Shown here piece by piece: positions 2,459 through 59,772 of a DNA stretch of 64,000 nucleotides (the stretch's first letter is position 1; every line of letters starts with the position of its first letter). The stretch lies in IMG/VR virus record IMGVR_UViG_3300010400_000001, positions 32,001 to 96,000 of that record; one strand, 5' to 3'. The DNA is from a virus. Made by a program: the position numbers and the translations under genes. Under the pieces are notes generated by a model that was given only the letters and a program-made list of their open reading frames with translations, did not search any database and had not been told where the DNA came from.

Positions 2459-2644
2459 GTGCCGAAGGACAAAGAACGCGCCGACAAGAGGCACGTCATC
2501 TACCTCCGCATCCGGTCGGATCTCAGGGACAAGCTCCGTCGCATGGTCTCTGCCGAGCTCATGAACGGTGACGACGAAGCGAGCATGAACTCCGTCGTCA
2601 CCGAACTGATTGAATCGGCGAAAGACCCCGTGCTCGACGGCTAG
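2459..2644 (+). CDS. Arc/ribbon-helix-helix DNA-binding protein
   Basis: IYLRI..DLRDKL...SMNSVVTELIE, Arc-like pattern. Confidence 0.75.
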   Translation: MPKDKERADKRHVIYLRIRSDLRDKLRRMVSAELMNGDDEASMNSVVTELIESAKDPVLDG

Positions 2645-3495
2645 AGACTGACGCGGAGCGTTGCCGAGCGCACGAAGCCCGCGCCGCCGGCAACGACCTG
2701 AAGCCCGAGCTTCGAAAGCGCCGCATCGAACGGAGTGAGCGGCGCGAAGCCGAGCACGGACACGTTGTCGAATTCTCCGGCAGCCGTATGCGTGACGGCA
2801 TCGGCCAGAACGGTCGCGGCGCCGAGCGGGTCCTGAACGATCGACACCGTGACGTCGTTTGCGCCCGTCTCGTTGACGGTGACGCTCGCTTCCACGTGAG
2901 CAAAGATCGCTCGCTGCCCGGTGTACTGAAGCGTCTGACCCGCATCTGCCAGCGCGAACCCGTTGGCGTTCGCGATTGAATCGAACGTCAGGATCGTCGT
3001 CCCGCCCGCGATGGCCTGATTCACGCTGATGATGCCGCGAGCCCTGGGCTCGGACAGGCCGACACCCTGGGCGTTACTGGAAAACACCGTCATGCCCATG
3101 AACACCTGGCCCTTAGCGCCGCCGGCAAGCTGCTCGTCGACGATGCCGAAGGGGACAGAGGCAAACGGCGCGGGCTCCCCAGCCGCCGTCTTCGCAGCCA
3201 GGAAGGCCTCTGGGCTACCTCCCATGTAGCAGCGCACCTGCGTCGCCTGAAGACCTCCAGCAGTGCCGAAGAGACCACCGAACTCGACGTCGGTGCCGGC
3301 TGCCGTTTCGATGATCACAACGAACGTGTGCCCATCGCCTGCTCCGGCAAGCGTGATCGACGTGATGAACGTCGTCGTTCCGTCGACATTAAGCAGAACC
3401 TCGTTCACCAGATTCTGCAGAGTCTCTGGATCTGCGCCTTCGACGAAGATTGGGTCTAGTGACGCCGTGGACGTAACATTTCCAAATTGTGTCAT
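2641..3495 (-). CDS. LAGAGDG-domain protein with C-terminal beta-sandwich (BclA-CTD/C1q-like) head, no collagen
   Basis: [12 protein letters not shown] and GGAKGQVFMGM motifs; beta-rich C-terminus. Confidence 0.7.
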   Translation of the reverse strand: MTQFGNVTSTASLDPIFVEGADPETLQNLVNEVLLNVDGTTTFITSITLAGAGDGHTFVVIIETAAGTDVEFGGLFGTAGGLQATQVRCYMGGSPEAFLAAKTAAGEPAPFASVPFGIVDEQLAGGAKGQVFMGMTVFSSNAQGVGLSEPRARGIISVNQAIAGGTTILTFDSIANANGFALADAGQTLQYTGQRAIFAHVEASVTVNETGANDVTVSIVQDPLGAATVLADAVTHTAAGEFDNVSVLGFAPLTPFDAALSKLGLQVVAGGAGFVRSATLRVSL

Positions 3496-3944
3496 GTTGT
3501 TGGGTCTCCCTGCTCCTTCACTCCTGCAACGAACGCCATAAAGCGTGTTGTCCGTCCGGATCCGGAAACACCCATGGTCATGGAAGAAATCCGCGTCGCT
3601 CCATTCCTCAGCGCAGCAATCGCGGACTCCTGATACTCCGAGAGCGCCTCGGCGTCAGCGCCGAGCCAGAACTTCGCCGTCACGCGCTCGAGTTCTTCTG
3701 CCTCCCATTCTCCCTCTGTGTGATCGCAGAGGAAGAAATGGAACGCAAAGACGTCACCCGAGCTCGAGAGGCCGACGTCGACGACCGAGAGGGGCTTCTT
3801 CCCGAGCTTTTTTCTCTCGGCGTTTTCGCTGATGATCTCCCGCATCTTCTGAAGAAAGTGCTGCTCCATTGCAGGGCCCTCGGTGCCCTGAATGAAGTCG
3901 ACGCGAGCGGTAGCGTCAGACGGGGTGTTGAACTTGAACCTCAA
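3492..3944 (-). CDS. Divergent stand-alone LAGAGDG-family domain
   Basis: DVGLSSSGDVFAF, FWLGADAEAL, GSGRTTRFMAFV align with the family motifs. Confidence 0.6.
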   Translation of the reverse strand: MRFKFNTPSDATARVDFIQGTEGPAMEQHFLQKMREIISENAERKKLGKKPLSVVDVGLSSSGDVFAFHFFLCDHTEGEWEAEELERVTAKFWLGADAEALSEYQESAIAALRNGATRISSMTMGVSGSGRTTRFMAFVAGVKEQGDPTT

Positions 3945-3956
3945 ATGCGCTTCTCG

Positions 3957-4496
3957 TTAGCCGGGGTTTTGCGGGGGCGGGATCAGCCCGACGACGCCGC
4001 ACATGAAGCGCGTCCCCTTGGCGGCTCCCGCTACGGCGAGGAACGGAGTGAAGAGCGTTGCGTCTCCGCCCGGAGTGCCCGCCAGCTGATCGAGGAGCGC
4101 AGTGATGGCGACGTTCATCGACGCTTCCACACTCTCCTGATCGCTCGCGAGCGCGAACTTGGCTACAAAGAGCGAGGGATCCAGAAAGACCGCGGTGGGA
4201 TTTAGCGGCAGCGAGGCTGACTCACCCAAAAGGACGTTCTGCACGCCGGCCAGCGCCACGCGCGTGAACGTCACCGTGAAGATGAACGTATGGCCGTCGC
4301 CGGCGCCCGCGAGGTTTGCGTCGACGGGCGTGAATTTGTTTTGCGGATCTTCGATCGTGTCGTTCAGGGCGACGATCTCCGCCAGGTGAAGCGCCACCAC
4401 GCGCGCCATCTCTTCCGGATCGGCTGCCTGCGCATGCCGAACGATGTAGTTACTGACGCCGCTTGTGCGCGAAAGAACCGCGATCGTAAGTGCCAT
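3957..4496 (-). CDS. Stand-alone LAGAGDG-family protein
   Basis: ADPEE, DANLAGAGDGHTF, GAAKGTRFM; start trimmed to MALTIA. Confidence 0.75.
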   Translation of the reverse strand: MALTIAVLSRTSGVSNYIVRHAQAADPEEMARVVALHLAEIVALNDTIEDPQNKFTPVDANLAGAGDGHTFIFTVTFTRVALAGVQNVLLGESASLPLNPTAVFLDPSLFVAKFALASDQESVEASMNVAITALLDQLAGTPGGDATLFTPFLAVAGAAKGTRFMCGVVGLIPPPQNPG

Positions 4497-4546
4497 GGGA
4501 TTTTCCCTTTTGTGAGGCCACGGTCCGGCTTTGGCGCGGACCTCGG

Positions 4547-5050
4547 CTAAAAGAGAGCGTATCCGGTTCGCAGGCGTCGCGCTAGGTAGAAGCCGCCGCC
4601 AGCCAAAAACGCCCCTAGTGCGAGCTGCACTCCCGGTCGGGAGAGGAGCGGCCTGTCGTCCGCCCACGGCGCGCCGGGGACCGGGCACTCGGTCGTCGTC
4701 GGGCACACATCGCTAATTTTCACGCCCGGGTGCCACTCGAAGTGCCCTAAGTCGCCGAAGGAAAAGTCGCCGCCCCAAACGCCGCCCATCCGTTTCCATT
4801 CATGGCCGAGAAGGGCGTACTCGCTCTCGGTCCCGTCAATCTCCAGGTCAGCAGCACGTCCCCACACGTGCCACGATTGGCAGCCCCGCGCCTGAGTGAC
4901 GACGCCGGCGCCGCCTTCGTAGATAGCATTCTGCTCGGCGCAGGTCCTCCGAGTCGAGACGACGCGTGCCAGGATGCCGTTCTTCTCCGCAAAACGGAGA
5001 AGCTGCCCGAGCTTCTGCTCCATCCATGGCGTGAGCTCGTCGGAGGACAA
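4547..5050 (-). CDS. M15-family peptidoglycan peptidase with C-terminal membrane anchor
   Basis: R..EQ, SWH..GRAAD, WGGDF, D.GHFE motifs; C-terminal hydrophobic helix plus RRLR. Confidence 0.85.
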   Translation of the reverse strand: MSSDELTPWMEQKLGQLLRFAEKNGILARVVSTRRTCAEQNAIYEGGAGVVTQARGCQSWHVWGRAADLEIDGTESEYALLGHEWKRMGGVWGGDFSFGDLGHFEWHPGVKISDVCPTTTECPVPGAPWADDRPLLSRPGVQLALGAFLAGGGFYLARRLRTGYALF

Positions 5051-5410
5051 TTACTCCCCGCTCGAGATCACTGTCGGGTTCGGATCGAGCGCGACCGGAT
5101 TCGGTGCGAGGTCGGGCTTCTTCCGCGCGCGCCCGCGGTAGACTTCTGCCGTCACGTTCTCTCCGGTCCGTGCCTCGTACTGGGCGATGACCCGAAAGCC
5201 CTGACGGCTCTTCGGGTTCGTAGTGACTGCTCGGTCGTGCTTGCCCTGGGTTGCGCCGATGCGAGCCAGATCCTTTGCGGCAGAAAGCACGAGCGGATTG
5301 CGATTCACGTGACGGACAGGATGCTTTCTGTCGCGCACCCCCATTTCCCACACGTGATAACGAGCACTGCGGATCACTTGTTTTATTTTTTTCGGCGTCA
5401 GAAGAGCCAT
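5051..5410 (-). CDS. Basic protein with repeated NP motifs
   Basis: Lys/Arg-rich; start trimmed to MALLTPKK. Confidence 0.6.
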   Translation of the reverse strand: MALLTPKKIKQVIRSARYHVWEMGVRDRKHPVRHVNRNPLVLSAAKDLARIGATQGKHDRAVTTNPKSRQGFRVIAQYEARTGENVTAEVYRGRARKKPDLAPNPVALDPNPTVISSGE

Positions 5411-5429
5411 TACAGATCTCCTTTGATCA

Positions 5430-6242
5430 TCACGCCGCCTTTGCCCAATCGAGAACGACGTCCTTCGGATAGTTCGGGCCGGGGTCCGTGTGCGTCGTCT
5501 GGTGGAATGCCTGCGTAACGTCCACGTGCGTGCAAAGACCTCGGCCTCCCGCCTTGAGCTCGGCGACCGTGAGCCACGTGAGAGGGATCGACCACTTCCT
5601 CGCCTCGAAGGCGACGAGCCTGGCAACGAGCTTCAACATTCGCTGGCCGTATTCGTCGAGCCACTCGTCGCGCGTCTGCTTCGAGTAGCCTGCCTGCTCG
5701 ATGCCGATCGAGCGCTCGTTCGGCGGCGCGTGGTAGGCGATGTGCTCGTCCTTCACGGACTGGATGATGCTATCCAAGTCGACGATGTAGTGAGCGCTCG
5801 CCGGCTTCGGAGGACCGAGCTTGAAGTACGAGGCGATCGCCTCGGCGCTGTTGAAGTACTCGCCGTCCTCTGCCGCGTGGAGCACGATGATATCGACGGC
5901 TTTCCTGTCGGCCCACTGCCAGTACTTTGCAGGGATGTAGGGGATCGGCGGCAAGTCGCCCGGAAACGGGATCGGCTCATCGAAGAGCAGTGGGTTAATG
6001 GCCGCACGCGTGTCCTTGCCGACGACGCCGTCCACCGGAACGAGCGCCCGGCGCGACTGGAACACTCTCGTGACAGCGTCTGTATGATCGCCGAAGAACC
6101 CATCGACTGCGATCGGCCACTCGTAGGGCCACTTCTCCGGACGCCGCTCGTAGCGCTGCACTTCTTGCCAGGCCGCGACGTCGTGCCCCCGCATGCCCTT
6201 CTTGAGTAGAGGGCGCCAGAGAGACGGCGCTGGCTTGATCAC
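5430..6242 (-). CDS. Endolysin: peptidoglycan-binding domain plus Amidase_2 (N-acetylmuramoyl-L-alanine amidase)
   Basis: G.DV..WQ / VDGFFG..T / FQ..VDGVVG; IVLH, SAHY, SIGIE, H..DPGP. Confidence 0.92.
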   Translation of the reverse strand: MIKPAPSLWRPLLKKGMRGHDVAAWQEVQRYERRPEKWPYEWPIAVDGFFGDHTDAVTRVFQSRRALVPVDGVVGKDTRAAINPLLFDEPIPFPGDLPPIPYIPAKYWQWADRKAVDIIVLHAAEDGEYFNSAEAIASYFKLGPPKPASAHYIVDLDSIIQSVKDEHIAYHAPPNERSIGIEQAGYSKQTRDEWLDEYGQRMLKLVARLVAFEARKWSIPLTWLTVAELKAGGRGLCTHVDVTQAFHQTTHTDPGPNYPKDVVLDWAKAA

Positions 6243-6974
6243 GCTTCCTCCTCTTCGTTTGGGCAGAGGATGATGAGCTGATCGGCCGCTTCACGAAGGA
6301 GCGCCGCCTCATCGAGGTACGCCGAGCGGCCGGGCTCGCTCTCCCCCGCGTGCCTCTCGTGGAGATCGGCGCGCTCTCGCAAGCGTCGAATGAGACGGCG
6401 AATACGGCGCTCGTTGTCGCTCACTGTCCCTTGTCCTCTGGTAGTGACGGGATCCCAGTCTCGAGCTCCGTGACCCAGCGACGGAGCTCGTCCGCGAGAA
6501 GCACCGCTTCCGCCTTCGTTCTGAACTCGAGCCGCACTCCCGGCATCGGCGCTTTGACGAGAGTGGCAGTGACGCCTTCAGGAAGACGCATCACCGTCTG
6601 CCAAAGCCACGTGCGATCCGGATCCGTCATTGGAAGAGCTCGCGCCTCGCCCTCAAACGTTTGGCAACGCCCTCCCAAGTATCGGACTGGTGGAGTTCGA
6701 TTCCGAGCTCGAGAGAAGCGCCAGCAAGAGCGCAGATGCCCTCGATCGTCACGCGCCCCTCGATTGTCTCGAGCACGTTCGAGAGCGGCTGTCCGTTCGC
6801 AACCCAGAGCAGACGCTTCGGCTCGCGGCCCCGCATGTGCCGATGAAGCGCCCGGTAGATGGTCTGGATCTCTTCGTCGTAGCGCTCGGTCACGCTGTCA
6901 TCGGCAATACGAATGCGATCTTCTGTTGCGAGCGCCTTCGCCTCACCGAGCACCGTCTTTGCCTTTTCATCCAC
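6239..6974 (-). CDS. Three small coupled hypothetical genes (6239-6424, ~6421-6630, 6627-6974)
   Basis: Chain of ORFs linked by 4-nt stop/start overlaps. Confidence 0.55.
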
Positions 6975-6980
6975 GACGTT

Positions 6981-7562
6981 TTACCTATCGATCGACACCG
7001 ACACGGGAAGGAGCGCGAACGAGCCCTTCTCTGGCTCCTGAAGATTGCACGGGCGCCCGGCGCTCGACGGGACTTCGATGTGCCGCCCTGCTTCGCACCA
7101 CGAGCTACCGCTTCCCGTGTTCTTCGTCGCGATCTTTTGCCCTCGCGACGCGAGCCACGAGGACGGATCGATGCTCACGATCGCGCCTCCTGGCGTAAAC
7201 CCAGTCACGCCGAAAAAGACCTGGCCGAGCGACGTTCCGATCTCCTGCCCGCGCCCGACGTATTGGCCCTCTTGAAAATCGTGCGGCTCTACCCCGTCGT
7301 ACATCAGAACGACCGGCTCCGAGAGCGACGCGAGGTGGAGGAACCTGTCGCCCACTGCCGCGACGCGTCCGCTCACCGTGGAGTACACCGGAGTACCCTC
7401 CGGGGTAGCAATTGCGAGGCTCGGGTCACATACCTTGGACCTATTAGGGCCCGGACAGGCACTCACCGTTCCCGTTTTGACAACCGCACGGTTCGGTCGA
7501 AAAAAGGTCTTGATGATGGCGACTCCAGCAATGGCTCCGAGGACATACGGCGCTGTGCTCAT
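6981..7562 (-). CDS. M23 peptidase-like protein lacking zinc ligands, N-terminal membrane anchor
   Basis: IATPEGTPVYS...GRV and EGQYVGRGQEIG match M23 fold; HxxxD and HxH absent. Confidence 0.7.
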   Translation of the reverse strand: MSTAPYVLGAIAGVAIIKTFFRPNRAVVKTGTVSACPGPNRSKVCDPSLAIATPEGTPVYSTVSGRVAAVGDRFLHLASLSEPVVLMYDGVEPHDFQEGQYVGRGQEIGTSLGQVFFGVTGFTPGGAIVSIDPSSWLASRGQKIATKNTGSGSSWCEAGRHIEVPSSAGRPCNLQEPEKGSFALLPVSVSIDR

Positions 7563-7628
7563 TTGCCTAAGCATGCCGGAACTAGGCGCGCCGGACAAGT
7601 CTTGGTAGCCTTTGAGGGAAGACGAGCC

Positions 7629-7916
7629 ATGAAGTTCTCGGCGGAAATCCCGTGGGTCTCGGTCGAGCAGTACCAGAGGACGTTCGGCGTTCACTGCGAA
7701 GTCTGCGGTGTCGTCGGGGAAGTGCCGACGCTCGGTTACGTCAATGCTTTCGCCAATGAACATCGCGAGCATCGAGCGGCCTCCGATCACTTCGGCCTAG
7801 GCGACGCCGTCCACCGTCTTGCCGCGCCGATTGCGCGCGCCTTCGGCCAAAAACCATGCACGCCGTGCGAAGCGCGGCGGCGGCAGCTGAACGGACTTGT
7901 CCGGCGTCCCTGGTAA
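7629..7916 (+). CDS. Small Cys/His protein (GLGD...CxPC..RR..LN)
   Basis: CEVC..H...H and CTPC; start trimmed to MKFSAE. Confidence 0.65.
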   Translation: MKFSAEIPWVSVEQYQRTFGVHCEVCGVVGEVPTLGYVNAFANEHREHRAASDHFGLGDAVHRLAAPIARAFGQKPCTPCEARRRQLNGLVRRPW

Positions 7917-7926
7917 GGAGCCACTT

Positions 7927-8133
7927 GTGAAAGACGAACAGGAAGTCCCGACAAACCCAACGAACGAAAATGACCCTGTCATGGCTGCCGTCGCGCGCAT
8001 CGAAGGCAAGCTCGACACGCTGACGGGCATCGCCCGGATGATCGTGGACGAGCTCCAAGTCCAAAAGAAGCAGATCCGGGATCACGAAGAGCGGATTTCG
8101 TATCTCGACATGGTTCCAGGGAGCCCCGCATGA
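7927..8133 (+). CDS. Small coiled-coil protein
   Basis: AAGGAG SD before GTG; heptad pattern. Confidence 0.55.
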   Translation: MKDEQEVPTNPTNENDPVMAAVARIEGKLDTLTGIARMIVDELQVQKKQIRDHEERISYLDMVPGSPA

Positions 8134-8522
8134 TGAGCGACTCACAGGAAGCGCGACTCACGTCCCTCGAGCGCTGGCGAGAAGCCGTCGACCACGAGCG
8201 CGGAGTCATCATGCGTGACCTCGGCTCGTTTCAAGCGACCCTCGACGCCATCTCGAGTCAGGTATCGCAGCTCAACTTGCAAGTGACCACTCGACTCGAC
8301 GGGATCTCCGACAAGCTCGACGACAGACCGAGCCGGAGCGAGTTCGATAGGGACATGGACAGCATCCGAGCGAAGACTCGAATAAAGCCGAGCCTCACGA
8401 AGCTCGATCTCATCCTGCCCGGCAACATCCGAGTGAAGCTTCTCGGCGTGAGCGGCATCACCATCGTGCTCGCGCTCCTGCTCATCGCCTCTGCCATCGT
8501 CTTTTGGATCCTTCACAAGTAG
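8130..8522 (+). CDS. Coiled-coil protein with C-terminal TM helix (holin-like candidate)
   Basis: Heptads then ITIVLALLLIASAIVFWIL. Confidence 0.6.
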   Translation: MMSDSQEARLTSLERWREAVDHERGVIMRDLGSFQATLDAISSQVSQLNLQVTTRLDGISDKLDDRPSRSEFDRDMDSIRAKTRIKPSLTKLDLILPGNIRVKLLGVSGITIVLALLLIASAIVFWILHK

Positions 8523-8527
8523 CCACT

Positions 8528-9198
8528 ATGTCAGAAGGCACCTTCATGCTCGTCGACGAGGCCACCACCCAGGACGGTCTCGTACGCATTCTGGCCGGCA
8601 CGGGCGGCGCTTGGCTCTATCGACCGGGCGAGCCTCCAGAGCGACTTGATATCGACGACGCGAAGGCGCGCATTTTGAGGGCGCGACTCGGGGGACAATG
8701 ACCAAAAAGCCTGACGCGGGACCGAGCATGCCGCCCATGCGACCGGTGACGCAGAAGGACTTTTCGAGGCCGGGGCAGCGCTTCGTATGCTGGCTCCGCT
8801 GCACCGTCGTCGCCTCGCACGGAAAGCACGCCATCCTCGACAACGGAGGGGGCTTCGTGGCGATCGCTGGCTCTGGCTCGAGTGAATACGATTTGCGACC
8901 GGGCGACGAAGTCTTCGTGAGCGTCGACCGAGCGCTCCGCGAAGGCGAGACGGACGACCAAGGCGGCGACCAGAAAGCGTAAGCCTAGGGAATGGACGAC
9001 GAGCCGCAAAAGAGAGCTGCCGATTGGCCGTTCGCAGTGATTGCGCTCGGCATCCTTGCGACCTGGATGTTCAAGTGCTGGCAGTCGCTAAGGAGCGATC
9101 CCGAGCTTTGGCAGAAGGGCGCAGCAGTCCTTGGAATCGTCGCAACGCTCATCCTCGCGTCAATCGTGCTCATCAACACGGTCCGACGGTACCCTTGA
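8528..9198 (+). CDS. Three small hypothetical genes (8528-8701, 8698-8982, 8992-9198; last has two TM helices)
   Basis: Tightly packed co-oriented ORFs. Confidence 0.5.
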
Positions 9199-9223
9199 CA
9201 AGGAAAGAGGGCGGATCCATGGT
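9195..9223 (+). promoter_or_regulatory. Sigma70-like promoter TTGACA-17-CATGGT
   Basis: Perfect -35 at 9195-9200, -10-like at 9218-9223; predicted start near ATG 9231. Confidence 0.65.
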
Positions 9224-9230
9224 GTCCGGC

Positions 9231-9251
9231 ATGCGAAGCTCGTCTCATTGA
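9231..9251 (+). CDS. Putative leaderless minigene MRSSSH
   Basis: ATG at predicted TSS, TGA at 9249-9251 just before terminator hairpin. Confidence 0.45.
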   Translation: MRSSSH

Positions 9252-9279
9252 CAGTCAGCGCCTCGAGCGCTCGATGAGC

Positions 9280-9314
9280 AAAAGGCCTGCGGGAGTATCC
9301 CCGTCAGGCTTTTT
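9280..9314 (+). terminator. Intrinsic terminator/attenuator hairpin upstream of tRNA-like cluster
   Basis: AAAAGGCCTG-CGGG..CCCG-T-CAGGCTTTTT. Confidence 0.75.
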
Positions 9315-9322
9315 CGCATTTT

Positions 9323-38929: not shown

Positions 38930-39308
38930 CGTATCGATCTCGCAAACGAGCTCTCGCACCATGACCCGAGCGCCCTTGGGGTACTCCGACCTGGCTCCCC
39001 AGTCGCGACATTCAGCCAACTTGCTCTCCTTCATGGCCACTCCGAACAGCCGAGCACCCGCGGCTCGTCGCTATGCTTGAGCTCGTCCCACATGGAGACC
39101 GTTCCACGCTCCGTATCCGTGTTGCACTTCAGTTTCCGGGCGCGCTCTTCTGAGCATTCCGAGATCGTCGCTTCCTCGAAGTCTTCCGGGTCTGATCCCT
39201 GCTCCTCACCCACGACGTAAAGAAGCTCTCGAGCGTGCTCCGGATGCAGGGCAGCGACCCAGTACGTTGCGCCGCCCACCGCGGCCTGGAAGATCTTGAG
39301 CGGCAGCG

Positions 39309-40328
39309 TCATGGCTCGAACCCGAGCCTACCGAGCTCCGCGGCGATGAGGTCGAGGTCCCCCCACGCTTCGTCGGTCACTTTTCCGTGTTTGTTCATCC
39401 AATGGCGCATCATCTGGCACAGGGCGCGGAGCTCGAAGTGCTCGGCGGCGAATTGGCGGCGACTGTATGCCGGACAGAGCCGAGCTTCCTGAATCGCGTC
39501 TTCGATATCGGCGCCGCAGTCGCCGCACATGTCGGCGCCGCCCTCTGCCGGGGTGACAGGACGGTGCGTCTCCACGATGGTGACGAGCGAGTCGTGAACT
39601 CTAGAAACGATCGACTCGAAGTTCTCTTCGTCGGGACACCCAGCTGCTTCGGTTAGGCGCGCCAAGGATGCGCGGAGCGTCGTGTTCTCGGCATGAAGCC
39701 GTTTCAGCGAGTCCCGATCTGCTTCCGCGAGCGCCCTCGGCAGGCGCTGGCGATTGAGCCTCACGATCTGCTCACGCAATTCGACGTTCTCGCGCCGAAG
39801 CTCCTCGACCTCTTTCGTAGGTTCCTGCATTTCCCTCACCTCCATGTGCCGGATTGCGTCCGCGAACACGCGGAGACCAACTTCCGTATCGATGTGGTAG
39901 ACGTCGACCACGATTCGCGCGGCCGCGGCCTTCTTATCGACTACGCATCGCCATGTGTTTTCGATCCATTTAAGCCTTTCGGGCACGCTCTCTTCTCTCC
40001 CATCAGGGTCTTCGTACAAGCGCACGCCGTCAGCGTCGTAGTATTTCGCGCCGTAGGACTCCGGGTGAGGACAGGCGCAATGGCCGCCGCTCCGAATGTC
40101 GGTCCTGCCCACCGGATCGGCGTACAGCTCTCGCGCGAGTTCGATCGGCACCGGCCCCTCGGCTACCCAGTAGGTCCACGCGCGATGGAAGTTAATGAGG
40201 CCGAGTTTGCCCTGGAGCGTTGCCGCTACCTCGCCAGCCAAGCGGGGGCCCTTGACGATCGAAATCCGCGCGCGCGTGAGCTCCTCTCGGATGTGCTCGT
40301 CACACTCGGCCGAGCCGGCTAGATTCAC
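39309..40328 (-). CDS. Hypothetical protein with coiled-coil C-terminal half
   Basis: Long ORF; start trimmed to GTG (MNLAG). Confidence 0.65.
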   Translation of the reverse strand: MNLAGSAECDEHIREELTRARISIVKGPRLAGEVAATLQGKLGLINFHRAWTYWVAEGPVPIELARELYADPVGRTDIRSGGHCACPHPESYGAKYYDADGVRLYEDPDGREESVPERLKWIENTWRCVVDKKAAAARIVVDVYHIDTEVGLRVFADAIRHMEVREMQEPTKEVEELRRENVELREQIVRLNRQRLPRALAEADRDSLKRLHAENTTLRASLARLTEAAGCPDEENFESIVSRVHDSLVTIVETHRPVTPAEGGADMCGDCGADIEDAIQEARLCPAYSRRQFAAEHFELRALCQMMRHWMNKHGKVTDEAWGDLDLIAAELGRLGFEP

Positions 40329-40763
40329 GAGTCCGCTCACTTCTTTTTTCCTTGCGCCGGGTACACGATTCGCACGAAGGCATACTCCCAGATGACAACG
40401 TCCTGGCCGCGCGCCCACTCCTGAATCCCTTCGAGCGGCTCCTTCTCGAGCAGGAAGTGTTCGCCGTTCGGACGGACAATGATCCAGTGATTCGCGCCCG
40501 AGAGCGGAGCGGGGACGAGCGCTTCCGGATCTGCCGTTGCATGCGCGTCCACCTTGGTTGGTTCTTTATTCATGTGCCTCACAGTTTCGCTACTACTACA
40601 GCGATGGCCACGCTCCCCGCGCACCAGCGCGGGCTCGCGCCAAGAGCGAAGGCGCACGCTCCAACGAAGAGCGCGTTACCGAGAATGGTCGTCATGTGCT
40701 CCACTTTCTCTGCCACGAGCTTCATTGCCGGGTCGACCCGTTCCGCTTCGTCGAACACGTCTC

Positions 40764-41279
40764 TCACTTCTCGGCCTCGAGCTCTTTCCTCAAAAGCTCC
40801 TGAAGTCGCGGGAGCGCGACCGTCACCCAGTGCTTGAGCCCGTAGCTCATCCTGTAGACGGCGAACTCGTGCGGCGACTCGAAACTCGTCTCGCGGTACC
40901 AATCGTAAAAGCCCACGATATCGTCCTCGACACTCGAGGCGATTTCCCACTCGCGGAGGGCGTCTTCGTGGCTCAGGCGCTGAGCGCGTCGCTCGGTCCG
41001 GATGTGCTCCCGAATTTTCTCGAACGTTTCCTGCCCGTCGTAGACCTGGAGTTCCTCTTTCTTCCCCATGCCGAACTTCCCGGCAACGTAGTCCGGGCCA
41101 GTGGACTCGAAGAACTGCCGGAAGTCTGGAAACCCCGTGTGCGCAGTCACCCACCGGAAGCACCAGGTCCCGTAGTCCGACAGAACGGCCACGCATCCAG
41201 TCGAATCAATGAAGACGATCGACCACGAGTCGCTTCCGTCCGGAAGCGCGGGAAGTTGGTAGCGCCACGTCGTCGTCAT
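40764..41279 (-). CDS. Hypothetical phage protein
   Basis: SDYG.W.F.W ... DYVAGK pattern; abuts upstream stop. Confidence 0.7.
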   Translation of the reverse strand: MTTTWRYQLPALPDGSDSWSIVFIDSTGCVAVLSDYGTWCFRWVTAHTGFPDFRQFFESTGPDYVAGKFGMGKKEELQVYDGQETFEKIREHIRTERRAQRLSHEDALREWEIASSVEDDIVGFYDWYRETSFESPHEFAVYRMSYGLKHWVTVALPRLQELLRKELEAEK

Positions 41280-41588
41280 CCTAGAGCGTCGCTCCCAAGT
41301 CTTCCAAGACTCTCGCCATGGCGCCGAGCTCCCTCACGTAGCGCTGCACCTTCCTGTTGACGCGGCCAGCGCGGGAGTCGGAGGCAATATTGCCGAGGCG
41401 TTCGGCGCGCCGGAGGACGGCGATCGCTTCCCGCACGTGACGGGCGGCGTCATCAAAAGCGATGAGTTGGTCACCGACAGTCAAAAGCTCAGTGACGTGC
41501 TGCGGAAGCTTCGCGTGCATCGTTTTTCTCCTGGCGCGTCGTTGCTCGGCGCGACAGGACTCGGGCCCAAGGACAATCCTCGAGCTTC

Positions 41589-41625
41589 GGCTAGCACTGC
41601 TAGCTCGCCTGTGATTCACTGTCAA
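41589..41625 (-). promoter_or_regulatory. Leftward promoter (TTGACA at 41625-41620) with palindromic operator over the -10 region
   Basis: At the strand switch; operator identical to 2425-2441. Confidence 0.65.
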
Positions 41626-41671
41626 GCAGGACTGAAGACGCGGGCACCATCCCCCGTCAAAAGGCTACAAA

Positions 41672-42364
41672 ATGGGACGTTTTCTCGTGCGACTATCGAC
41701 CGATGAGATGAAGGAGGCGCGAGGGATCGCGCGCCATCGCGGCGACACTGGACCAATGGAGGCCCTCGGCGAGCAGGCGATTGCGATCGGTTTTCGGCGG
41801 AAGTGGGACGGAGAATTTACGAACCTTCACAAGTGGGATTCGTGGAAGCGGATTGGCGTGACGCCTGCCGGCCTTATCGTGAAGCTCACTAGGTCGGGTC
41901 TTGCAGATCTCGAGCTCGATGAGGCGGTGCCCGGCGACCACGCCGTCGTCCTGGTCGCCACGCCCGAGCCCGGGCTCTTCGTCTTTCTCGGCTGGACGAT
42001 GGCGAGTGAAGCGAAGAAGGAGACCTTCTGGCGCGCTACCACGAAACAGTTCGTGTTTCCGCATGCGTCTCTTCGCTCGTGCTGGGAGCTACGACGTCGG
42101 CCGCGGAACTCGAGCGGACGACTGAACGCAAACGATCCGGCGGACGACTTCGCCGGCGGCGGCCGCTACCCGCACATGCTCGACACGGACACGGGGAAGC
42201 ATCCGGCTACGTACGGGAACATCATCACGTCGAAGTGGGCCCTTCCGTGCCGGCGGTGCCAGAAAATTATCCCCGTTGGGGTAGCTGTCGGTGGTAACCA
42301 GCGTACCGGGACGATCCATGGTGACCCGAAGGACTGCGGCTTCAAGGCGACCACCGACGAGTGA
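41672..42364 (+). CDS. Hypothetical protein, possibly degenerate PD-(D/E)XK fold plus zinc finger
   Basis: GE.A...VK..R...D..VLV...LGW pattern; CRRC...H...C. Confidence 0.6.
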   Translation: MGRFLVRLSTDEMKEARGIARHRGDTGPMEALGEQAIAIGFRRKWDGEFTNLHKWDSWKRIGVTPAGLIVKLTRSGLADLELDEAVPGDHAVVLVATPEPGLFVFLGWTMASEAKKETFWRATTKQFVFPHASLRSCWELRRRPRNSSGRLNANDPADDFAGGGRYPHMLDTDTGKHPATYGNIITSKWALPCRRCQKIIPVGVAVGGNQRTGTIHGDPKDCGFKATTDE

Positions 42365-42379
42365 GCGCGCATTCAGAAC

Positions 42380-42412
42380 TTGACTGGGATATGCCATCGA
42401 CAGTATGTCGAT
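42380..42412 (+). promoter_or_regulatory. Putative promoter (TTGACT) overlapped by palindrome ATCGACA-gta-TGTCGAT
   Basis: Palindrome 42396-42412 immediately upstream of the RHH gene. Confidence 0.55.
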
Positions 42413-42419
42413 AGGTCCC

Positions 42420-42626
42420 ATGTCCGACAAAATTTCTACGATGCCGGTGAGAAAGAAACGCGGGCGACCTCGCCCCAATCACTTCTTCGTCATGCTCGAC
42501 GAGGAAGATCGCATTGCGCTCGAGGAAGCAGCGAAACTCGAGAAGCTTACAAAGAGCGACGTGCTTCGGCGCGCGCTCCGCGCTTACTACCGAGAACTAC
42601 GTAAAACACAGGCCATCGCCAGCTAG
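42420..42626 (+). CDS. CopG/RHH DNA-binding protein with AT-hook-like RGRPR
   Basis: FFVML....IAL...A....LTKSDVLRRAL. Confidence 0.75.
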   Translation: MSDKISTMPVRKKRGRPRPNHFFVMLDEEDRIALEEAAKLEKLTKSDVLRRALRAYYRELRKTQAIAS

Positions 42627-42644
42627 CCCGAGGAGTCAACCAAA

Positions 42645-43487
42645 ATGGGATTCCTCATCGATCCACGCATGTGGGACGACCCGTGGTTTCGTGGGCTCAA
42701 GTCGCCAGGAGCTCGAGAACTCTGGATGGGGTGCCTTCTCAGCCGTATCCGAACGAGCCTTCCTGGGCTCGTAGCGAATGCTGGCGTTCTCGTGCTCGGC
42801 GAGACGTTGGCGAGGCCCGTCGAGTTCATCCAAGAGGGCATCGAAGAGCTGCTTTTGCCGGACAAAAACGGAAAGCAACACTTTTTTTGGGATTCTGATT
42901 CGAGGGTCATTCGCATCCCGATGGCGCCGAAGTACCAAAAAGCCGAAAACCCGAATCAGCTGCTCGGTTGGTACCGAAACTGGCGGGACATCCCAGAGTG
43001 CCAGCTCAAGTGGGACCACCTCGGGACGCTGCCGCTCGGGGTGAACTTCGAAAACAAGAACATGCGGCAGCTGTGGGCGGAGATTTTTGGCCCCATCGTC
43101 GACGCTCACAACCGCGGGGTGAAGCTCACGAGCAACGCCGAGCTTCCAGCAGGCTGGCGGCCGTCGCGAGGCAAGAAGCCTCTGGATCTGGATCTGAAAG
43201 GGGATCTGAAAGGGGATCGGGATCTGGATCTGGATCTGGATCCCACGGTTACCCAAACCGTTTCGAAACGGTTACAAGTTGTTAAAATCACACCAGAACC
43301 CCAGAATCGGAAAAATCCCGCAAGTCGTTCGCAAAATCACAGCACGACCGGTCGTAAAAGTTTAGTGGGGTCGGGCGGGGCCACCGATAGCACCAGTCTC
43401 CGGGCTACCGATGACCCGGAAGTACTTGAAAAGAATGGGTGGAAGAAGACGAAGGGCGGCACGTGGATGCCTCCCGGTTACTGTTAA
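42645..43487 (+). CDS. Phage replication initiator protein
   Basis: MWDD.WF..L....RELW N-terminus, DLDLDL linker, contains iterons, precedes DnaC/DnaB. Confidence 0.7.
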   Translation: MGFLIDPRMWDDPWFRGLKSPGARELWMGCLLSRIRTSLPGLVANAGVLVLGETLARPVEFIQEGIEELLLPDKNGKQHFFWDSDSRVIRIPMAPKYQKAENPNQLLGWYRNWRDIPECQLKWDHLGTLPLGVNFENKNMRQLWAEIFGPIVDAHNRGVKLTSNAELPAGWRPSRGKKPLDLDLKGDLKGDRDLDLDLDPTVTQTVSKRLQVVKITPEPQNRKNPASRSQNHSTTGRKSLVGSGGATDSTSLRATDDPEVLEKNGWKKTKGGTWMPPGYC

Positions 43488-43569
43488 ACCCTTTCGAAAC
43501 CGTTTACCTAACCGTTTCGAAACGGTTACCCAAACCGTTTACCTAACCGTTCCGGAACCCTTCCGAAGG
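43246..43569. repeat. Iteron-like origin: ~12-bp AACCGTT(T/A)-type repeats in two blocks
   Basis: Palindrome AACCGTTTCGAAACGGTT at 43256 and 43510; tandem variants 43484-43569. Confidence 0.75.
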
Positions 43570-43572
43570 CAC

Positions 43573-44466
43573 ATGGACCACGTTCAGAAGTCATTCGACG
43601 ACGTAACTGCCGAATTTTCCTTGGCAAGGTCCAGGGACCAACAAGAACTCAAGGCTGCCTCGAGTGCCGCGGGAAGCCCCGGGAAGGTCCTAGCAACGCT
43701 CGCCCCGCTCGTTTCCGCGGCGTGCCCGGTCGACATCAGCGAAGCGGGTCTCGTGTCGCACCCGACCGTTTGGTACCGGGACTCCGAGCGTCGACTGAAG
43801 CTTTGTGGGCAATGCCCCCCGCACGGCGGCGCCTGCGCGGAGGACGAGACGTCGCTCCGTGTGGGCAAGGTGCCTACCTGGGAGGGCGAGGTACTCCGGG
43901 CGCTGCCGTGCGCGCGCTGGCAAGAGCATCGGGTGCGAGAGCGTCTGCGCGGGAGCGGCGTCCCCCGGGCGCTCCTGAACTCGACCTTCAGCGATTTCGA
44001 TCAGCCAACCGCGGGCTCGGAGCTCTCGAAGCTTCCGGAGTTCGTCTCGAGTCTGCTTCGGCACGAGCCCGGTTGGCTAGTCGTCACGGGTCCGCACGGC
44101 AGCGGCAAGACGCGTCTCTCGGTCGCGACGCTTCGAAGTCTCGTTACACGCGCGCCTCGAGCGCTGCTCTGGTACGCCGACGTCCCGTCAGTCCGTGCGT
44201 TCATGAAACAACGCTACGACTCGGACGAGACGATGGGCGATCCGTTCGAGCACGCGCGCATGGCCGACGTCACGGTGATCGACAATCTCGATCCGCAGAA
44301 AGCCGGAACCGAATCCTGGTTCACAGAGCGGCTCGAGGCCGTACTGCGACAACGCTTTCTCGATGAGCGCGCGACGATCGTGACCACGCGCTCGACCACC
44401 GAAGAGCTCGCCAAACATTTTCGTTCGGTAACGTTCGACGAGGTCCCTGTTTGCAGCCTGCAGTAA
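43573..44466 (+). CDS. DnaC/IstB-like helicase loader ATPase
   Basis: CxxC region, Walker A GPHGSGKT, Walker B VIDNL, TIVTT; start trimmed to MDHVQ. Confidence 0.8.
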   Translation: MDHVQKSFDDVTAEFSLARSRDQQELKAASSAAGSPGKVLATLAPLVSAACPVDISEAGLVSHPTVWYRDSERRLKLCGQCPPHGGACAEDETSLRVGKVPTWEGEVLRALPCARWQEHRVRERLRGSGVPRALLNSTFSDFDQPTAGSELSKLPEFVSSLLRHEPGWLVVTGPHGSGKTRLSVATLRSLVTRAPRALLWYADVPSVRAFMKQRYDSDETMGDPFEHARMADVTVIDNLDPQKAGTESWFTERLEAVLRQRFLDERATIVTTRSTTEELAKHFRSVTFDEVPVCSLQ

Positions 44467-45890
44467 AGCAACCCGCTGAGCTTCGGCCGCGAGAGGGTAG
44501 GCCGCCGCCGCTAGATCTCGACGCGGAGGCTGCGGTGCTGAGCACCGTGCTGCTCGTCCCAGCAGCGTTCGATGAAGTCGCCGGCGTGCTCCAGGCTCAC
44601 ATGTTTTACTCCGAGGCGAACAAACGCATCTTCGAAGCCGCGACCTCGCTCAGGCAAGCCGAGAGCGCGATCGATTTCGTGACGGTCGCCGCGTGGCTCA
44701 ATCGCGAAGGGAAACTCGCCGTCGTCGGTGGGACGCCGTATCTCACGATGCTGACGGACGAGACGCCGTTCGTGAACAACGTTCTCCACCACGCCGAGAT
44801 CGTGCGCGACCGATGGCAACTCCGCCGGCTCATCGTCGAGTGTCAGAATTACGCCGCGCTCGCATACACGTCGAGTGAGCCGGCGATCACGATCGTTCAA
44901 GCCGCGGAGGGCGCGATCGCCGAGCTCTCGGTGCACGGCGCCGGCAAAGACCTCGAGCACGTCGGCACGATCATCGAATCCGAAGTCGAAGTGCTCGCAA
45001 CGATCCAAACCGACGGCGTTCGTAATCACGGGACCGGGATCCCAACCGGCTTCGAAAATCTCGACGGGCTCATGGGCGGTCTCCATCGCGGCGACCTGTA
45101 CATCGTCGCTGGTCGCCCCGGCATGGGCAAATCGTCGCTCGCAAGAAACGTTGCCGTGAACGTAGCGCGCCCCCGCCGTCACGCAGTTGCATTCTTCACG
45201 CTCGAGATGCCGAAGAGCCAAGTCGCGATCGGTTTCGCATGCAGCGAGCGCGACGTCCGAATGGCGAACGTCAGAAAAAATGCACTTGGTCCAGACGAGT
45301 GGGAAAACTTCAAACTCGGCGCGCGCGAACTCGCGTCTTACCCGATTTGGATCGACGACACGCCGGCGCTCTCGCTCTTCGACATTCGGGCTCGCGTGCG
45401 AAAGCTGCAGCGAGACATAGCGGCCAAGCGGACGCCGGTCGAGTGTGAAGAACTCGGTCTCGTTGTCGTGGACTACTTGCAACTCATGCGCGGCGTCAGG
45501 AGCTACAACGACAATCGAGAGAACGAAGTGTCGAGCCTGAGCCGCGGACTGAAAGAGCTCGCCAAAAACTTCAACGTGCCCGTGATGGCGCTCAGCCAAC
45601 TCAATCGCTCCGTCGAAACGAAGCCGAAGAAAGATCGCCGTCCACAGCTTTCAGATCTCCGCGAGTCGGGAGCGATCGAGCAAGACGCCGACGCCGTCGG
45701 GTTCGTTTACCGACCGGAGTACTACGACAAGGAAGCGCGCAAGGGCGACGCCGAGTTCATCATCGCGAAACAGCGTAACGGCCCGCCAGGAACCGTCACG
45801 ATGCACTTCAAGGGCGACTCGATGCGCTTTTACGAACGAGCGCACGAGACCCTCGAAGAGCTCGAGTCCGACTTCATCGAAGACCGATGA
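44451..45890 (+). CDS. dnaB: Replicative DNA helicase
   Basis: EAAVL, GRPGMGKS, LEM, VVDYLQL, LSQLNR, SDLRESGAIEQDAD, AKQRNGP. Confidence 0.95.
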   Translation: MQPAVKQPAELRPREGRPPPLDLDAEAAVLSTVLLVPAAFDEVAGVLQAHMFYSEANKRIFEAATSLRQAESAIDFVTVAAWLNREGKLAVVGGTPYLTMLTDETPFVNNVLHHAEIVRDRWQLRRLIVECQNYAALAYTSSEPAITIVQAAEGAIAELSVHGAGKDLEHVGTIIESEVEVLATIQTDGVRNHGTGIPTGFENLDGLMGGLHRGDLYIVAGRPGMGKSSLARNVAVNVARPRRHAVAFFTLEMPKSQVAIGFACSERDVRMANVRKNALGPDEWENFKLGARELASYPIWIDDTPALSLFDIRARVRKLQRDIAAKRTPVECEELGLVVVDYLQLMRGVRSYNDNRENEVSSLSRGLKELAKNFNVPVMALSQLNRSVETKPKKDRRPQLSDLRESGAIEQDADAVGFVYRPEYYDKEARKGDAEFIIAKQRNGPPGTVTMHFKGDSMRFYERAHETLEELESDFIEDR

Positions 45891-45954
45891 ATCCTGCCGT
45901 ACGCGCGATGGCGCTTGAGCCTGCCCGGGCCTGCCGCTAGTCTGTGACTCACCG

Positions 45955-47439
45955 ATGGCCAGGGACGACGTCACGCTCTACGACATCCCACCTGCGTTTC
46001 AGAAGCGGCTCCTGAAGTGGCTCGACAAGGGCGACGGCGTCCAGCTCACGGCGTATGCGGGAGGCTTCAACGTGCGGGCACTCGGTCCGTACGGCGAGCC
46101 GTTCACTGCGCGCACGTTCGAAGCGGCGCTCCTCGGCGCGATGAAGTCGCGCGCGGAGCAGCAGATCGATCCCGAGTTCGGTCGGCGCGTGCATGCGTGG
46201 CTCGAGGCGCATGACGCGGAGATGACCATCACGTCGCCGAAGACGAATCAGTTTCGTATGCGTCTCCTCGCGGACGACGGTCGCCTTGTCGCCGCCGCGA
46301 TCGACGAAGATCTCGAGGTCGCTCTCGTGTTCGCCGAAGATCAGTTTCTCGCGCTGCTAGGCGAAGAGCCGGAGGAAGAGCCCGAGACCAGTCCGGCTCG
46401 TACTCGTCATCGCGAAGAAGTCGAACCCGAGACGATCGCGGCAGAGACTCGAGCAGCAGAGACACGCGCCATGGATCCGAAAACGACGCGAACGCTCTTC
46501 GACGATCAGCTCACGATGCCCGCGCGCTACTCGCGCAATGCCGACATGCCGCCGCCCAGGCGCGGAGCGCGCCGCTCGCGCGAGCTTCCGAGCGTGCGTC
46601 GCATGGTCGAGCGCGAAGAAGCTCGGCAGCGCAGAGCCGAGCGTCCGTTCGATCCGGAAGCACCACGCGCGCACTACGCGAAGTCGCATCACTTCGCAGT
46701 GAACGAGTCGGGCTATGGCTACGGGCCAAGCGAGACCGGGCGCTACGTGCTGTTTCACGACAGTCGCGAGGTGATGCGCGGAACCGAAGCAGAGATCTGG
46801 AAAGAGCTCCCCCGGCACCCGTACAGCGTGGAGCACGCGCTTCGCCACGAGGGCTATCACATCGAGGCCGAGGTCCCGTCCATGGCGGTGAACTCGTCGT
46901 GGCCCGAGTACTACGAAGACGTCGTTGAGGAACTGAAGAAGCTCGGTCTTCGTCGCTCGGACGCTGACGACTACGCCTCGAAGATCCGCGCGAGCTGGTC
47001 AACGGCGCAATCGCCCGCGCGAGTCGCGCGCGAGATCAAAGCCATCGAGTCGGGCGAGCTTCGACAGAACCAAGAGCGCGACGTGCTTCGTGACGTGATG
47101 CTCGCCGACACGGGCTACCGACTCGTCGTCTGGGACACGCATCGCACGGATCATCGCGGGCAGACGGTCATGGGTTACGAGTTCTTCGAACCAGGCGAGC
47201 CCGAGCCTCTCTTCACCGGCGAAGACTTTGCGGGTTCGCCGATGCACGGGGATGATTCGGACGAGACCGTGCGATCTCTTCTCGGCTTTCTCACGCTCCG
47301 TCCGGGCGATACGGATCGCGAGTACTTCGACGCCTACACGCCGCGGCAGATGGCGTTTGCCGAGGGCGATGCCGAAGAGCTAGCAATGTTCGGCATGGAC
47401 GACCCAGAGTTCGACCCGCCGCCACTGGTCGATCGCTGA
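45955..47439 (+). CDS. Multi-module hypothetical protein
   Basis: 494-aa ORF of short modules separated by low-complexity linkers. Confidence 0.7.
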   Translation: MARDDVTLYDIPPAFQKRLLKWLDKGDGVQLTAYAGGFNVRALGPYGEPFTARTFEAALLGAMKSRAEQQIDPEFGRRVHAWLEAHDAEMTITSPKTNQFRMRLLADDGRLVAAAIDEDLEVALVFAEDQFLALLGEEPEEEPETSPARTRHREEVEPETIAAETRAAETRAMDPKTTRTLFDDQLTMPARYSRNADMPPPRRGARRSRELPSVRRMVEREEARQRRAERPFDPEAPRAHYAKSHHFAVNESGYGYGPSETGRYVLFHDSREVMRGTEAEIWKELPRHPYSVEHALRHEGYHIEAEVPSMAVNSSWPEYYEDVVEELKKLGLRRSDADDYASKIRASWSTAQSPARVAREIKAIESGELRQNQERDVLRDVMLADTGYRLVVWDTHRTDHRGQTVMGYEFFEPGEPEPLFTGEDFAGSPMHGDDSDETVRSLLGFLTLRPGDTDREYFDAYTPRQMAFAEGDAEELAMFGMDDPEFDPPPLVDR

Positions 47440-47506
47440 TCTGGCAGGATTAACGCCCCGGCGTTTCTCTAGACATGTACCCGGGGAGTCCTGTACTCTT
47501 TGGACC

Positions 47507-48025
47507 ATGCCGTTCACCGTCATCTCGTACCAAGACCCCACCTTTTTCGCGAATGCGTTCCCCCCGCCCGCAGTCGCGTTTCTGACCAAGGTAATCGAGA
47601 GTGCGGATCCGGAAGACATGCGAGTGCGCGTTGCCGCTGCGCTCGCGGAAGTCGTCGCGCTGAACGTGCTCATCGCCGCTGCGTTTCCGGATGACAACGA
47701 TCCGCAGCTCACGCTCACCGACTGCGACCTCGCCGGTGGCGGCGACGGTCATCCGTTCGTGTTCACGATGTTCTTCGTTCCGCAGACGGCGAACGTTCTG
47801 GCGGCGATCATCGACCTCACGCCAGGCGACATGGCGCCGCAAAATTTCCGGTTCGAGTTCGCGCTCGCCGGCGAAGGCGAAAAGCTCGATTCGGAAATCA
47901 ACGCCGCTCTCATCCGGGCCATCGGCGGCATCGACGCGACGATTCTTTTCCAGAACACGCGCGGCGCGGCCAAGGGCACGCGGTTCATGTTCTGCGTCGG
48001 CGGCTTGCCCGAAAACATCGGGTAG
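47507..48025 (+). CDS. Stand-alone LAGAGDG-family protein (orphan copy)
   Basis: ESADPE, DCDLAGGGDGHPF, EFALA, GAAKGTRFM. Confidence 0.8.
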   Translation: MPFTVISYQDPTFFANAFPPPAVAFLTKVIESADPEDMRVRVAAALAEVVALNVLIAAAFPDDNDPQLTLTDCDLAGGGDGHPFVFTMFFVPQTANVLAAIIDLTPGDMAPQNFRFEFALAGEGEKLDSEINAALIRAIGGIDATILFQNTRGAAKGTRFMFCVGGLPENIG

Positions 48026-59749: not shown

Positions 59750-59772
59750 GTTAGACCGGATCCCCTTGTAGA

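Follow-up and report, generated by a model that had tools for sequence, protein, structure and literature searches.

What is the task of a protein domain that recurs in eight genes of one virus, in some of them beneath collagen-like stalks of different lengths and in others entirely on its own? This question is raised by the window analyzed in this study, a stretch of 64,000 nucleotides (nt) which comprises bases 32001-96000 of a 136,226-bp IMG/VR record of an uncultured bacterial virus. An original prediction, made from the sequence without database searches, had regarded the domain as a common base that carries interchangeable stalks and heads and that might serve as a docking socket on the capsid. 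Sequence comparisons support the first of these ideas, i.e. that the domain behaves as a constant base beneath exchangeable stalks and heads. The second is held here with moderate confidence, in that the domain may anchor fibres to the particle, at a site on the capsid or at a vertex.

The family of base-domain genes

All eight open reading frames (ORFs) are present in the window and have a domain of about 130 amino acids (aa) in common, which is referred to as the base domain in the following. Together with a ninth gene of the same genome, the family comprises:

Copy A, 2641..3495, minus strand: base domain (residues 1 to about 150) and a 134-aa C-terminal part, no collagen; conserved single-copy class
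Copy B, 3492..3944, minus strand: divergent free-standing base, 150 aa
Copy C, 3957..4496, minus strand: free-standing base with insertions, 179 aa
Copy D, 13594..14691, minus strand: base, 34 Gly-X-Y triplets and a 119-aa head
Copy E, 17369..18412, minus strand: base, 25 triplets and a 123-aa head
Copy F, 20234..21445, minus strand: base, 28 triplets and a 182-aa head
Copy G, 21470..22858, minus strand: base, 58 triplets and a 141-aa head; conserved class
Copy H, 47507..48025, plus strand: free-standing base, 172 aa; conserved single-copy class
Ninth copy, genome positions 114168-115733 (beyond the window), plus strand: base with 72 triplets

Hidden Markov model (HMM) profiles were built from the copies in the window, each time leaving one copy out, and were searched against all 1,663 six-frame ORFs of at least 50 aa of the 136-kb genome. 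Each left-out copy was recovered (E-values: A 7.7e-20; B 7e-8; C 1.7e-16; D 2.6e-44; E 2.9e-37; F 2.6e-39; G 4.5e-28; H 2.1e-14), and the best unrelated ORF showed E ≥ 1 in these runs. When C and H were both left out, they still scored 1.7e-7 and 4.8e-9. The profile of all eight copies matched exactly nine of the 1,663 ORFs; the additional one, the ninth copy, was detected with E 7.5e-45 and had never been part of the training set. As had been proposed, the eight genes align with each other and share one paralogous domain, and the motifs given for it ([SA]DPE.L, LAGAGDG..F, GS.AE.L and G..KG..FM) are present in the alignment of the copies. The size of the family requires correction: a number of eight is right for the window, but not for the genome, which encodes nine. 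A weak profile match at 59286-59771 (E 0.037-4) was rejected, as this ORF is an Ala/Arg-rich low-complexity frame.

Comparison of the N-terminal parts by BLASTP showed that D, E, F and G are mutually 48-74% identical, with 74% between D and F, and that A shares 34-41% identical residues with these four copies. Between C and H, 37% of the residues are identical (E 4.7e-17), and both are only weakly similar to the rest; B is the most divergent copy, its best match being C (E 6.7e-5). For C, the start at position 4496 is favoured over an upstream GTG at 4706, since homologues of 175-181 aa span 96-100% of the 179-aa form. The genes of B and A overlap, at the stop of the former and the start of the latter, and 12 nt lie between the end of C and the beginning of B; C, B and A form a tight operon.

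An antisense ORF with a high GC content at the third codon position (GC3) overlaps the collagen part of D (13649-14365, plus strand) and was preferred by a crude GC3-based gene caller. Homology backs the frame of D, and the antisense ORF therefore seems to be an artefact which arises from the base composition of collagen-coding DNA.

Exchangeable stalks and heads

The stalks of D, F and G matched the Pfam family Collagen (PF01391) with 49.8, 43.4 and 82.7 bits, respectively, at a cut-off of 27.2 bits; E remained just below this cut-off with 26.9 bits, though 25 triplets were found by direct count. In D to G, Thr occupies position Y in 68-90% of the triplets. When A, D, E, F, G and the ninth copy were compared with the SEG filter switched on, similarity did not extend beyond residues 1 to about 138, and hence the heads are unrelated at E ≤ 1e-3. 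Triplet counts and BLASTP results therefore agree with the architectures that had been described for the window, namely four stalked proteins with unrelated heads (D to G), one with a head and no stalk (A) and three which stand alone (B, C and H).

In relatives of the virus, the head of G was found in three cases with 45-50% identical amino acids, that of D in one (60%) and that of the ninth copy in one (43%). The heads of E and F had no match in the virus loci first compared, while their bases matched in all of them with 45-67% identity; in one further metagenome locus, a head 36% identical to that of F was detected. A near-identical homologue of E from another sample differs by two substitutions and by a deletion of 24 residues (8 triplets) in the stalk, which indicates that stalk length is polymorphic among close strains.

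Outside this genome, the nine-copy profile was searched against 1.84 billion representatives and matched 339 clusters (50% identity) at E ≤ 1e-3, 214 of them at E ≤ 1e-10 and 43 at E ≤ 1e-30. Among the best 150 of these 339 clusters, the match started at residues 1-25 in every case (150/150); 45 of these proteins have at most 185 aa and are free-standing, and 105 are longer, with up to 845 aa. For this distant 845-aa member, no IMG/VR locus was matched. The parts past residue 140 of the 105 longer members fell into 56 BLAST clusters, including 46 singletons, and the largest cluster (27 of 105) contains A-type proteins of approximately 270-301 aa. Pfam families identified in the 105 longer members were Collagen (13 proteins), SO2946-like_C (2), and pectate-lyase-like, BclA_C and CDC48_2 (1 each); beta-helix-like and repeat-rich tails of family members were additionally noticed by eye. 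C-type proteins have 62 homologues, all of which are unnamed or annotated as 'hypothetical' and none of which possesses a Pfam domain.

In a maximum-likelihood tree calculated from 42 base domains of five genomes, four conserved single-copy classes, of which three consist of free-standing proteins, are separated from an expanding group of fibre proteins. B (support 100/98), C (98/89), H (98/91) and A (98/91) each form a clade with one member per genome, and class H is kept in four of the five genomes. G and its orthologues also form a clade (100/95). The rest is an unresolved crown of 17 fibre bases with C-terminal tails of 112-1,236 aa, in which sister pairs occur within one genome, such as D and F (97/92) and others in genomes G001, G002 and G003. 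All three genomes in which the trio of C, B and A was identified (G000, which is the genome of the window, G001 and G002) share the order C-B-A. In relative G001, an open frame of 1,457 aa (21098-25471, minus strand) and another one of 921 aa also contain the base domain; very large spikes therefore use the same base. It is the strictly N-terminal position among the best 150 of the 339 clusters, the 56 C-terminal clusters, the unrelated heads of the sister copies D and F, and the stalk deletion that bear out the predicted combination of one shared base with interchangeable stalks and heads.

The stalks begin at residues 133-138, i.e. the domain directly abuts the first Gly-X-Y triplet, and collagen helices, bacterial as well as animal ones, require a trimeric domain for nucleation. 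It could be assumed from this that the base domain is solely a trimerisation and registration nucleus, which starts the folding of collagen or spike from the N-terminus, and that attachment is brought about by something else. We regard this as improbable: the 45 free-standing proteins among the best 150 family members have nothing to nucleate, B, C and H are kept as free proteins in several genomes, the A-type proteins possess no stalk, and a collagen fibre of 601 aa encoded between E and F manages without the domain.

The base domain was also found in several genomes related to that of the window, which has a terminal repeat of 123 bp and a GC content of about 63%. Beside the nine copies in the 136,226-bp record, ten matches each were detected in relatives of 138,414 bp and 140,124 bp, seven in a relative of 116,237 bp (85% complete), eight in relative G003 (130,395 bp), including one identical pair, and six in a related virus-like contig of 122,730 bp within a metagenome-assembled genome (MAG). 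The identical matches of G003 (3544-3936 and 124052-124444) lie 120,508 bp apart on a contig recorded as 'linear' and probably represent one gene assembled twice, at both contig ends. This would correspond to a terminal redundancy of approximately 9.9 kb and a true genome size of about 120.5 kb. Of 24 metagenome loci, mostly contigs of less than 7 kb, 16 contain at least two copies.

In a phylum sample of 401 genomes, the base domain occurred only in the one MAG mentioned, apart from one marginal match over 38 positions elsewhere. All six matches in the MAG are confined to the single contig of 122,730 bp, which also encodes a protein 49% identical to a conserved 278-aa protein of the window. 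This MAG is labelled Pseudomonadota; the label is a weak hint at the host, as binning of virus contigs is weak evidence. When 50,697 phage records were searched by tblastn, none matched D, A or the 278-aa protein; window positions 11000-24200 likewise found no match by megablast.

Fold of the base domain and search for relatives

A model of residues 1-132 of D was calculated with AlphaFold2 from an alignment of the nine paralogues only and reached a mean predicted local distance difference test (pLDDT) of 89.2 and a predicted template modelling score (pTM) of 0.83. Its first half consists of a strand (15-22), a helix (25-37) and two further strands (43-52 and 59-67), and its second half repeats this order (strand 80-86, helix 89-99, strands 106-113 and 120-126). 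For an independent comparison of the halves, the alignment of the nine copies plus the 150 best database matches was split. Half 1 and half 2 were aligned by hhalign in register over 48 columns (probability 93.3%, E 2.8e-7), and the glycine-rich hairpins of both halves superpose in this alignment; such a hairpin closes each half and is the most conserved feature. Topology of the model and hhalign result are thus in accordance with the two internal half-repeats that had been suspected, and they support the view that the domain arose by internal duplication and is predicted to be an alpha/beta domain of two homologous strand-helix-strand-strand halves.

None of the sequence collections searched provided a name for the domain. 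Pfam-A, PHROGs v4 and NCBIfam 20 gave no credible match over the approximately 130 aa: A and H matched no Pfam or PHROG family, B and C only at E 0.04-0.4, and in NCBIfam nothing scored below E 0.0099, the best match being far under its own cut-off. D showed three PHROG alignments which start at residues 36-41 (E 3.7e-9 to 6.3e-5) and extend through the collagen; the collagen-free copies showed no such match. The assumption that the domain belongs to no named family therefore stands. Searches of the literature retrieved no paper with the motif string, on the domain or on the lineage, the latter not having been searched under other names.

Structure comparison led to a similar result. By Foldseek, neither PDB nor BFVD contained a match to the model at E ≤ 0.001, and the family profile found nothing below E 0.24 among all PDB chain sequences, with no tectivirus protein among its matches. 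For the whole domain, the best match by VIA-align had a Z-score of 5.4 to an unrelated fungal protein (7tpu_A), all others being ≤ 4.4. The ESM Atlas yielded no usable feature match, with an archaeal helix-turn-helix cluster as the nearest structure (template modelling score 0.52).

With the half-domain, VIA-align gave matches to FtsA/PilM/MTH1598 (Z 2.6-3.0) and to ACT, EF-1beta and neck proteins (Z about 3), all in the chance range of the tool. SHS2-like modules have the same order of secondary structure elements as the modelled half-domain, but match at chance level only. The same applies to BMC-T-type proteins (EtuB, Z 2.9; a designed BMC-T sequence, E 0.24). Tandem BMC-T proteins form trimers with six-fold pseudo-symmetry, and this is the geometry which might also be expected for the base domain. 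A kinship to SHS2, GyrI or BMC-T was dropped as evidence.

Proposed attachment to the particle

How might such a domain act? The base domain is proposed to be the particle-proximal foot of trimeric fibres and spikes in an uncultured lineage of viruses with genomes of 116-140 kb. A collagen helix or another spike module follows within a few residues of the domain, and consequently three bases would have to meet at a three-fold axis, where they would form a ring of six half-repeats. The base would fix the fibre to the virion, and duplication and recombination would exchange stalk length and distal head, so that one particle could display several receptor-binding specificities. A, B, C and H may be fibre-less or short base subunits which occupy or build docking sites together with the fibre-bearing copies. 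The genes in the vicinity, which include a collagen fibre, an SGNH esterase and lysins, are fibre- or virion-like and count in favour of anchoring. The most relevant ones are:

Conserved 152-aa protein, 23692..24150, minus strand: upstream of the 278-aa gene; two hydrophobic C-terminal segments, membrane protein as judged by eye
Conserved 278-aa protein, 22855..23691, minus strand: directly upstream of G, 4-nt overlap
601-aa collagen fibre without base domain, 18413..20218, minus strand: 66 triplets, located between F and E; PF01391 with 75.2 bits
868-aa protein, 14759..17365, minus strand: directly downstream of E; homologues beside fibre genes in relatives
856-aa protein with GDSL/SGNH esterase domain, 11027..13597, minus strand: PF13472 with 47 bits; overlaps the end of D by 4 nt
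Two GT2 fusion genes (GT2 plus TPR; GT2 plus methyltransferase), 24189..27717, plus strand: divergent from the Thr-rich collagen genes
Endolysin (amidase/peptidoglycan-binding), 5430-6242: recognised in Pfam/PHROG scans
M23-like peptidase, 6981-7790: recognised in Pfam/PHROG scans
DnaC-like and DnaB-like genes, 43411-45890 (DnaB-like gene 44451-45890)

In addition, a thymidylate-synthase-like gene was recognised in the genome. The order on the minus strand is 152-aa gene, 278-aa gene, G, F, 601-aa fibre, E, 868-aa gene, D and 856-aa gene. The trio C-B-A lies at a distance of about 1-3.5 kb from the endolysin and the M23-like peptidase. On a distant 76-kb contig, an endolysin-like gene is located between trio-like copies, and the trio may be linked to cell-wall enzymes; ten proteins scanned around the copies on this contig comprised lysin-like genes and a collagen fibre and no tail or capsid family.

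Both the 152-aa and the 278-aa gene are conserved in relatives, with 55-70% identity. In four metagenome loci, both precede a fibre gene with a G-type base, and a G-like head was matched in one of these. For the 278-aa protein, 99 homologues with lengths of 252-302 aa were found, all of them unnamed. Its AlphaFold model is a beta-sandwich (pLDDT 87, pTM 0.83), for which Foldseek found nothing at E ≤ 0.001, and its profile showed no match to PDB sequences. VIA-align gave a best Z-score of 6.5 amid mixed sandwiches and jelly rolls; matches up to this score included the C-domain of XepA, GOLD domains, picornavirus-like capsid proteins and the C-domain of STIV A223 (4.8). The predicted fold would be compatible with a vertex or capsid protein, and the product, which had been put forward as a possible partner in the original prediction, is a candidate for docking.

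As the GT2 fusion genes stand beside fibres with Thr at position Y in most triplets, O-glycosylated stalks similar to those of BclA are suggested. BclA is a cellular protein of the Bacillus exosporium whose attachment part is a short motif. The fibres described here resemble it in that a collagen stalk rich in Gly-X-Thr connects an N-terminal attachment part with a head, and in the glycosyltransferase genes alongside. Unlike in BclA, however, the attachment part is a duplicated domain of 130 aa, the proteins are viral, and no head of the window matches BclA_C.

Several points weigh against an anchoring function. Placement on the particle and oligomeric state are both deduced from sequence and from a model which is limited by its alignment of nine paralogues; no partner of the base was identified, and the 278-aa neighbour showed no decisive fold match. 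Since no fold relative has been solved, the structure yields no functional hint, and the PHROG 'tail fiber' labels of D to G stem from their collagen and are uninformative on the base. The 601-aa fibre lacks the base, which means that the domain is not the sole possible means of attachment. H lies within the replication block, past the DnaB-like gene and a 494-aa protein of unknown function, an odd position for a structural protein. Finally, copy B does not show the Gly-rich first hairpin motif in the alignment. When B, C and H were all left out of the profile, B was found only with E 0.0089, near the chance ORF with 0.037, and because of this marginal value its membership rests on the similarity to C and on the full profile.

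The location of H among early or replication genes would also suit a role away from the virion, in which the fibres reside on the infected cell or are released from it, as an exosporium-like nap or as adhesins, or in which the free copies are small-ligand or regulatory proteins of the strand-helix-strand-strand type. Gly-X-Thr collagen beside glycosyltransferases is likewise reminiscent of BclA-type naps, one family member carries a BclA_C head, and the half-domain matched FtsA/PilM-type and ACT-type folds (Z 2.6-3.0). These fold matches are at chance level, however, and the proteins open with a conserved short strand and show neither a signal peptide nor a membrane anchor evident by eye. Furthermore, the domain occurred in one of 400 other bacterial genomes sampled, and there marginally, the copies of the MAG are all located on a virus-like contig, and the neighbouring genes encode lysins, esterases and fibres. 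A non-virion role is thus very improbable.

If the base domain is part of the virion, the site to which it attaches depends on the type of particle. At HMM sensitivity, and with small ORFs scanned in part only, hallmark genes of the common particle types were not recognised. Six-frame Pfam searches of the genome gave no match at E ≤ 1 to terminase (PF03237, PF03354 and PF04466), portal (PF04860) or HK97 capsid (PF05065) families, nor to double jelly-roll capsid (PF09018 and PF04451) or FtsK-type ATPase (PF01580) families, and PF03237 and PF05065 were found in none of four relatives. A PHROG scan covered 50 proteins of the genome besides the eight copies, among them all ORFs of at least 400 aa of a crude gene call except G and the ninth copy, and revealed no terminase, portal, capsid, tube, sheath or baseplate family. 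The exceptions among structural labels were collagen-driven fibre labels and two weak matches of the 868-aa protein, one to a virion-structural and one to a tail family. A capsid candidate at genome positions 104906-105949, beyond the window, matched only unnamed viral clusters in the ESM Atlas and nothing in PDB.

A vertex or facet of the capsid is likelier than a tail as the attachment site, given that tail genes were not recognised. The domain could have the same role as a fibre base in a highly divergent tailed phage, where it would plug fibres into the baseplate or tail tip, but we consider this unlikely. Tails with several fibres on shared N-terminal adaptors are a known design. The collagen parts match tail-fibre families of PHROG, and the part of the 601-aa fibre behind the collagen matches the 'orf22' chain of PDB 9EFK (E 1.1e-10). 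The structure 9EFK shows the portal-tail complex of Legionella phage LME-1, whose tail fibre is the component present in 18 copies (PMC12407071). It follows that fibre modules are shared with tailed phages. The ninth copy, moreover, stands at the end of a long block of co-oriented genes of unknown function, where tail fibres are often encoded. On the other hand, the terminase, portal and HK97 capsid families expected of a tailed phage were missing from the searches described above, and beyond the collagen-driven labels and the two weak matches of the 868-aa protein no tail family of PHROG appeared. Fibres and tailspikes of tailed phages, multi-spike phages among them, are similar in that their proximal module is constant and their distal receptor-binding modules vary, and in that one genome may encode several fibres; they differ in that the base described here showed no similarity in sequence or fold to PHROG or PDB entries, that no tail genes were recognised and that free copies of the base are conserved.

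Anchoring at the capsid or a vertex, which is the reading preferred here, has its closest parallel of design in the tectiviruses. In phage PR772, spike protein P5 is reported to consist of an N-terminal base (residues 1-124), a collagen-like motif and a knob, and its base to be a paralogue of the free 126-aa protein P31; three P5 and two P31 form the penton, and the fused and free copies thereby solve the symmetry mismatch of a trimeric fibre at the vertex (PMC6750898). The layout of base, stalk and knob and the occurrence of the base in both fused and free paralogues are the same as in the virus studied here. The penton base of P5 and P31 has an all-beta jelly-roll fold, whereas the model of the base domain is alpha/beta, with two helices and the order strand-helix-strand-strand occurring twice. 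Nine paralogues in at least five classes are present instead of two, and the genome is about ten times larger. The difference in predicted fold suggests an analogy of design rather than membership in the tectivirus family of bases. A large paralogous repertoire is also known from the mosaic adhesive trimer (MAT) fibres of Bdellovibrio, which are trimeric proteins with diverse tips that recognise many surfaces (PMC10769870). MAT fibres, however, are cellular surface proteins of a predator.

A more far-reaching version of capsid anchoring appears doubtful to us. Fibre-bearing copies might co-assemble with the free copies B, C and H and with the short copy A as mixed trimers with six-fold pseudo-symmetry. 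Such trimers would tile or cap the shell of a large virus of an undescribed kind, tailless and possibly containing a membrane; the paralogue that occupies each position would then set type and density of the fibres.

The base domain represents a new family with no fold relative so far, whereas combining a constant proximal base with stalks and heads that can be exchanged is a known principle. Particular to this system are the internal duplication, the number of up to ten paralogues per genome, the conserved free-standing classes and the occurrence in a lineage without recognisable structural genes. A previously unannotated domain is now delimited which marks host-recognition genes of an uncultured virus lineage, and a single profile suffices to find fibres and spikes in these genomes. 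The design of free and fused bases, so far documented in small tectiviruses, is thereby found in genomes ten times larger. Should the attachment site be the capsid, the domain would open a way into the architecture of viruses that so far lack any recognisable capsid, portal or terminase. With its constant base and freely swapped heads, the family is a natural system for studying the diversification of host range.

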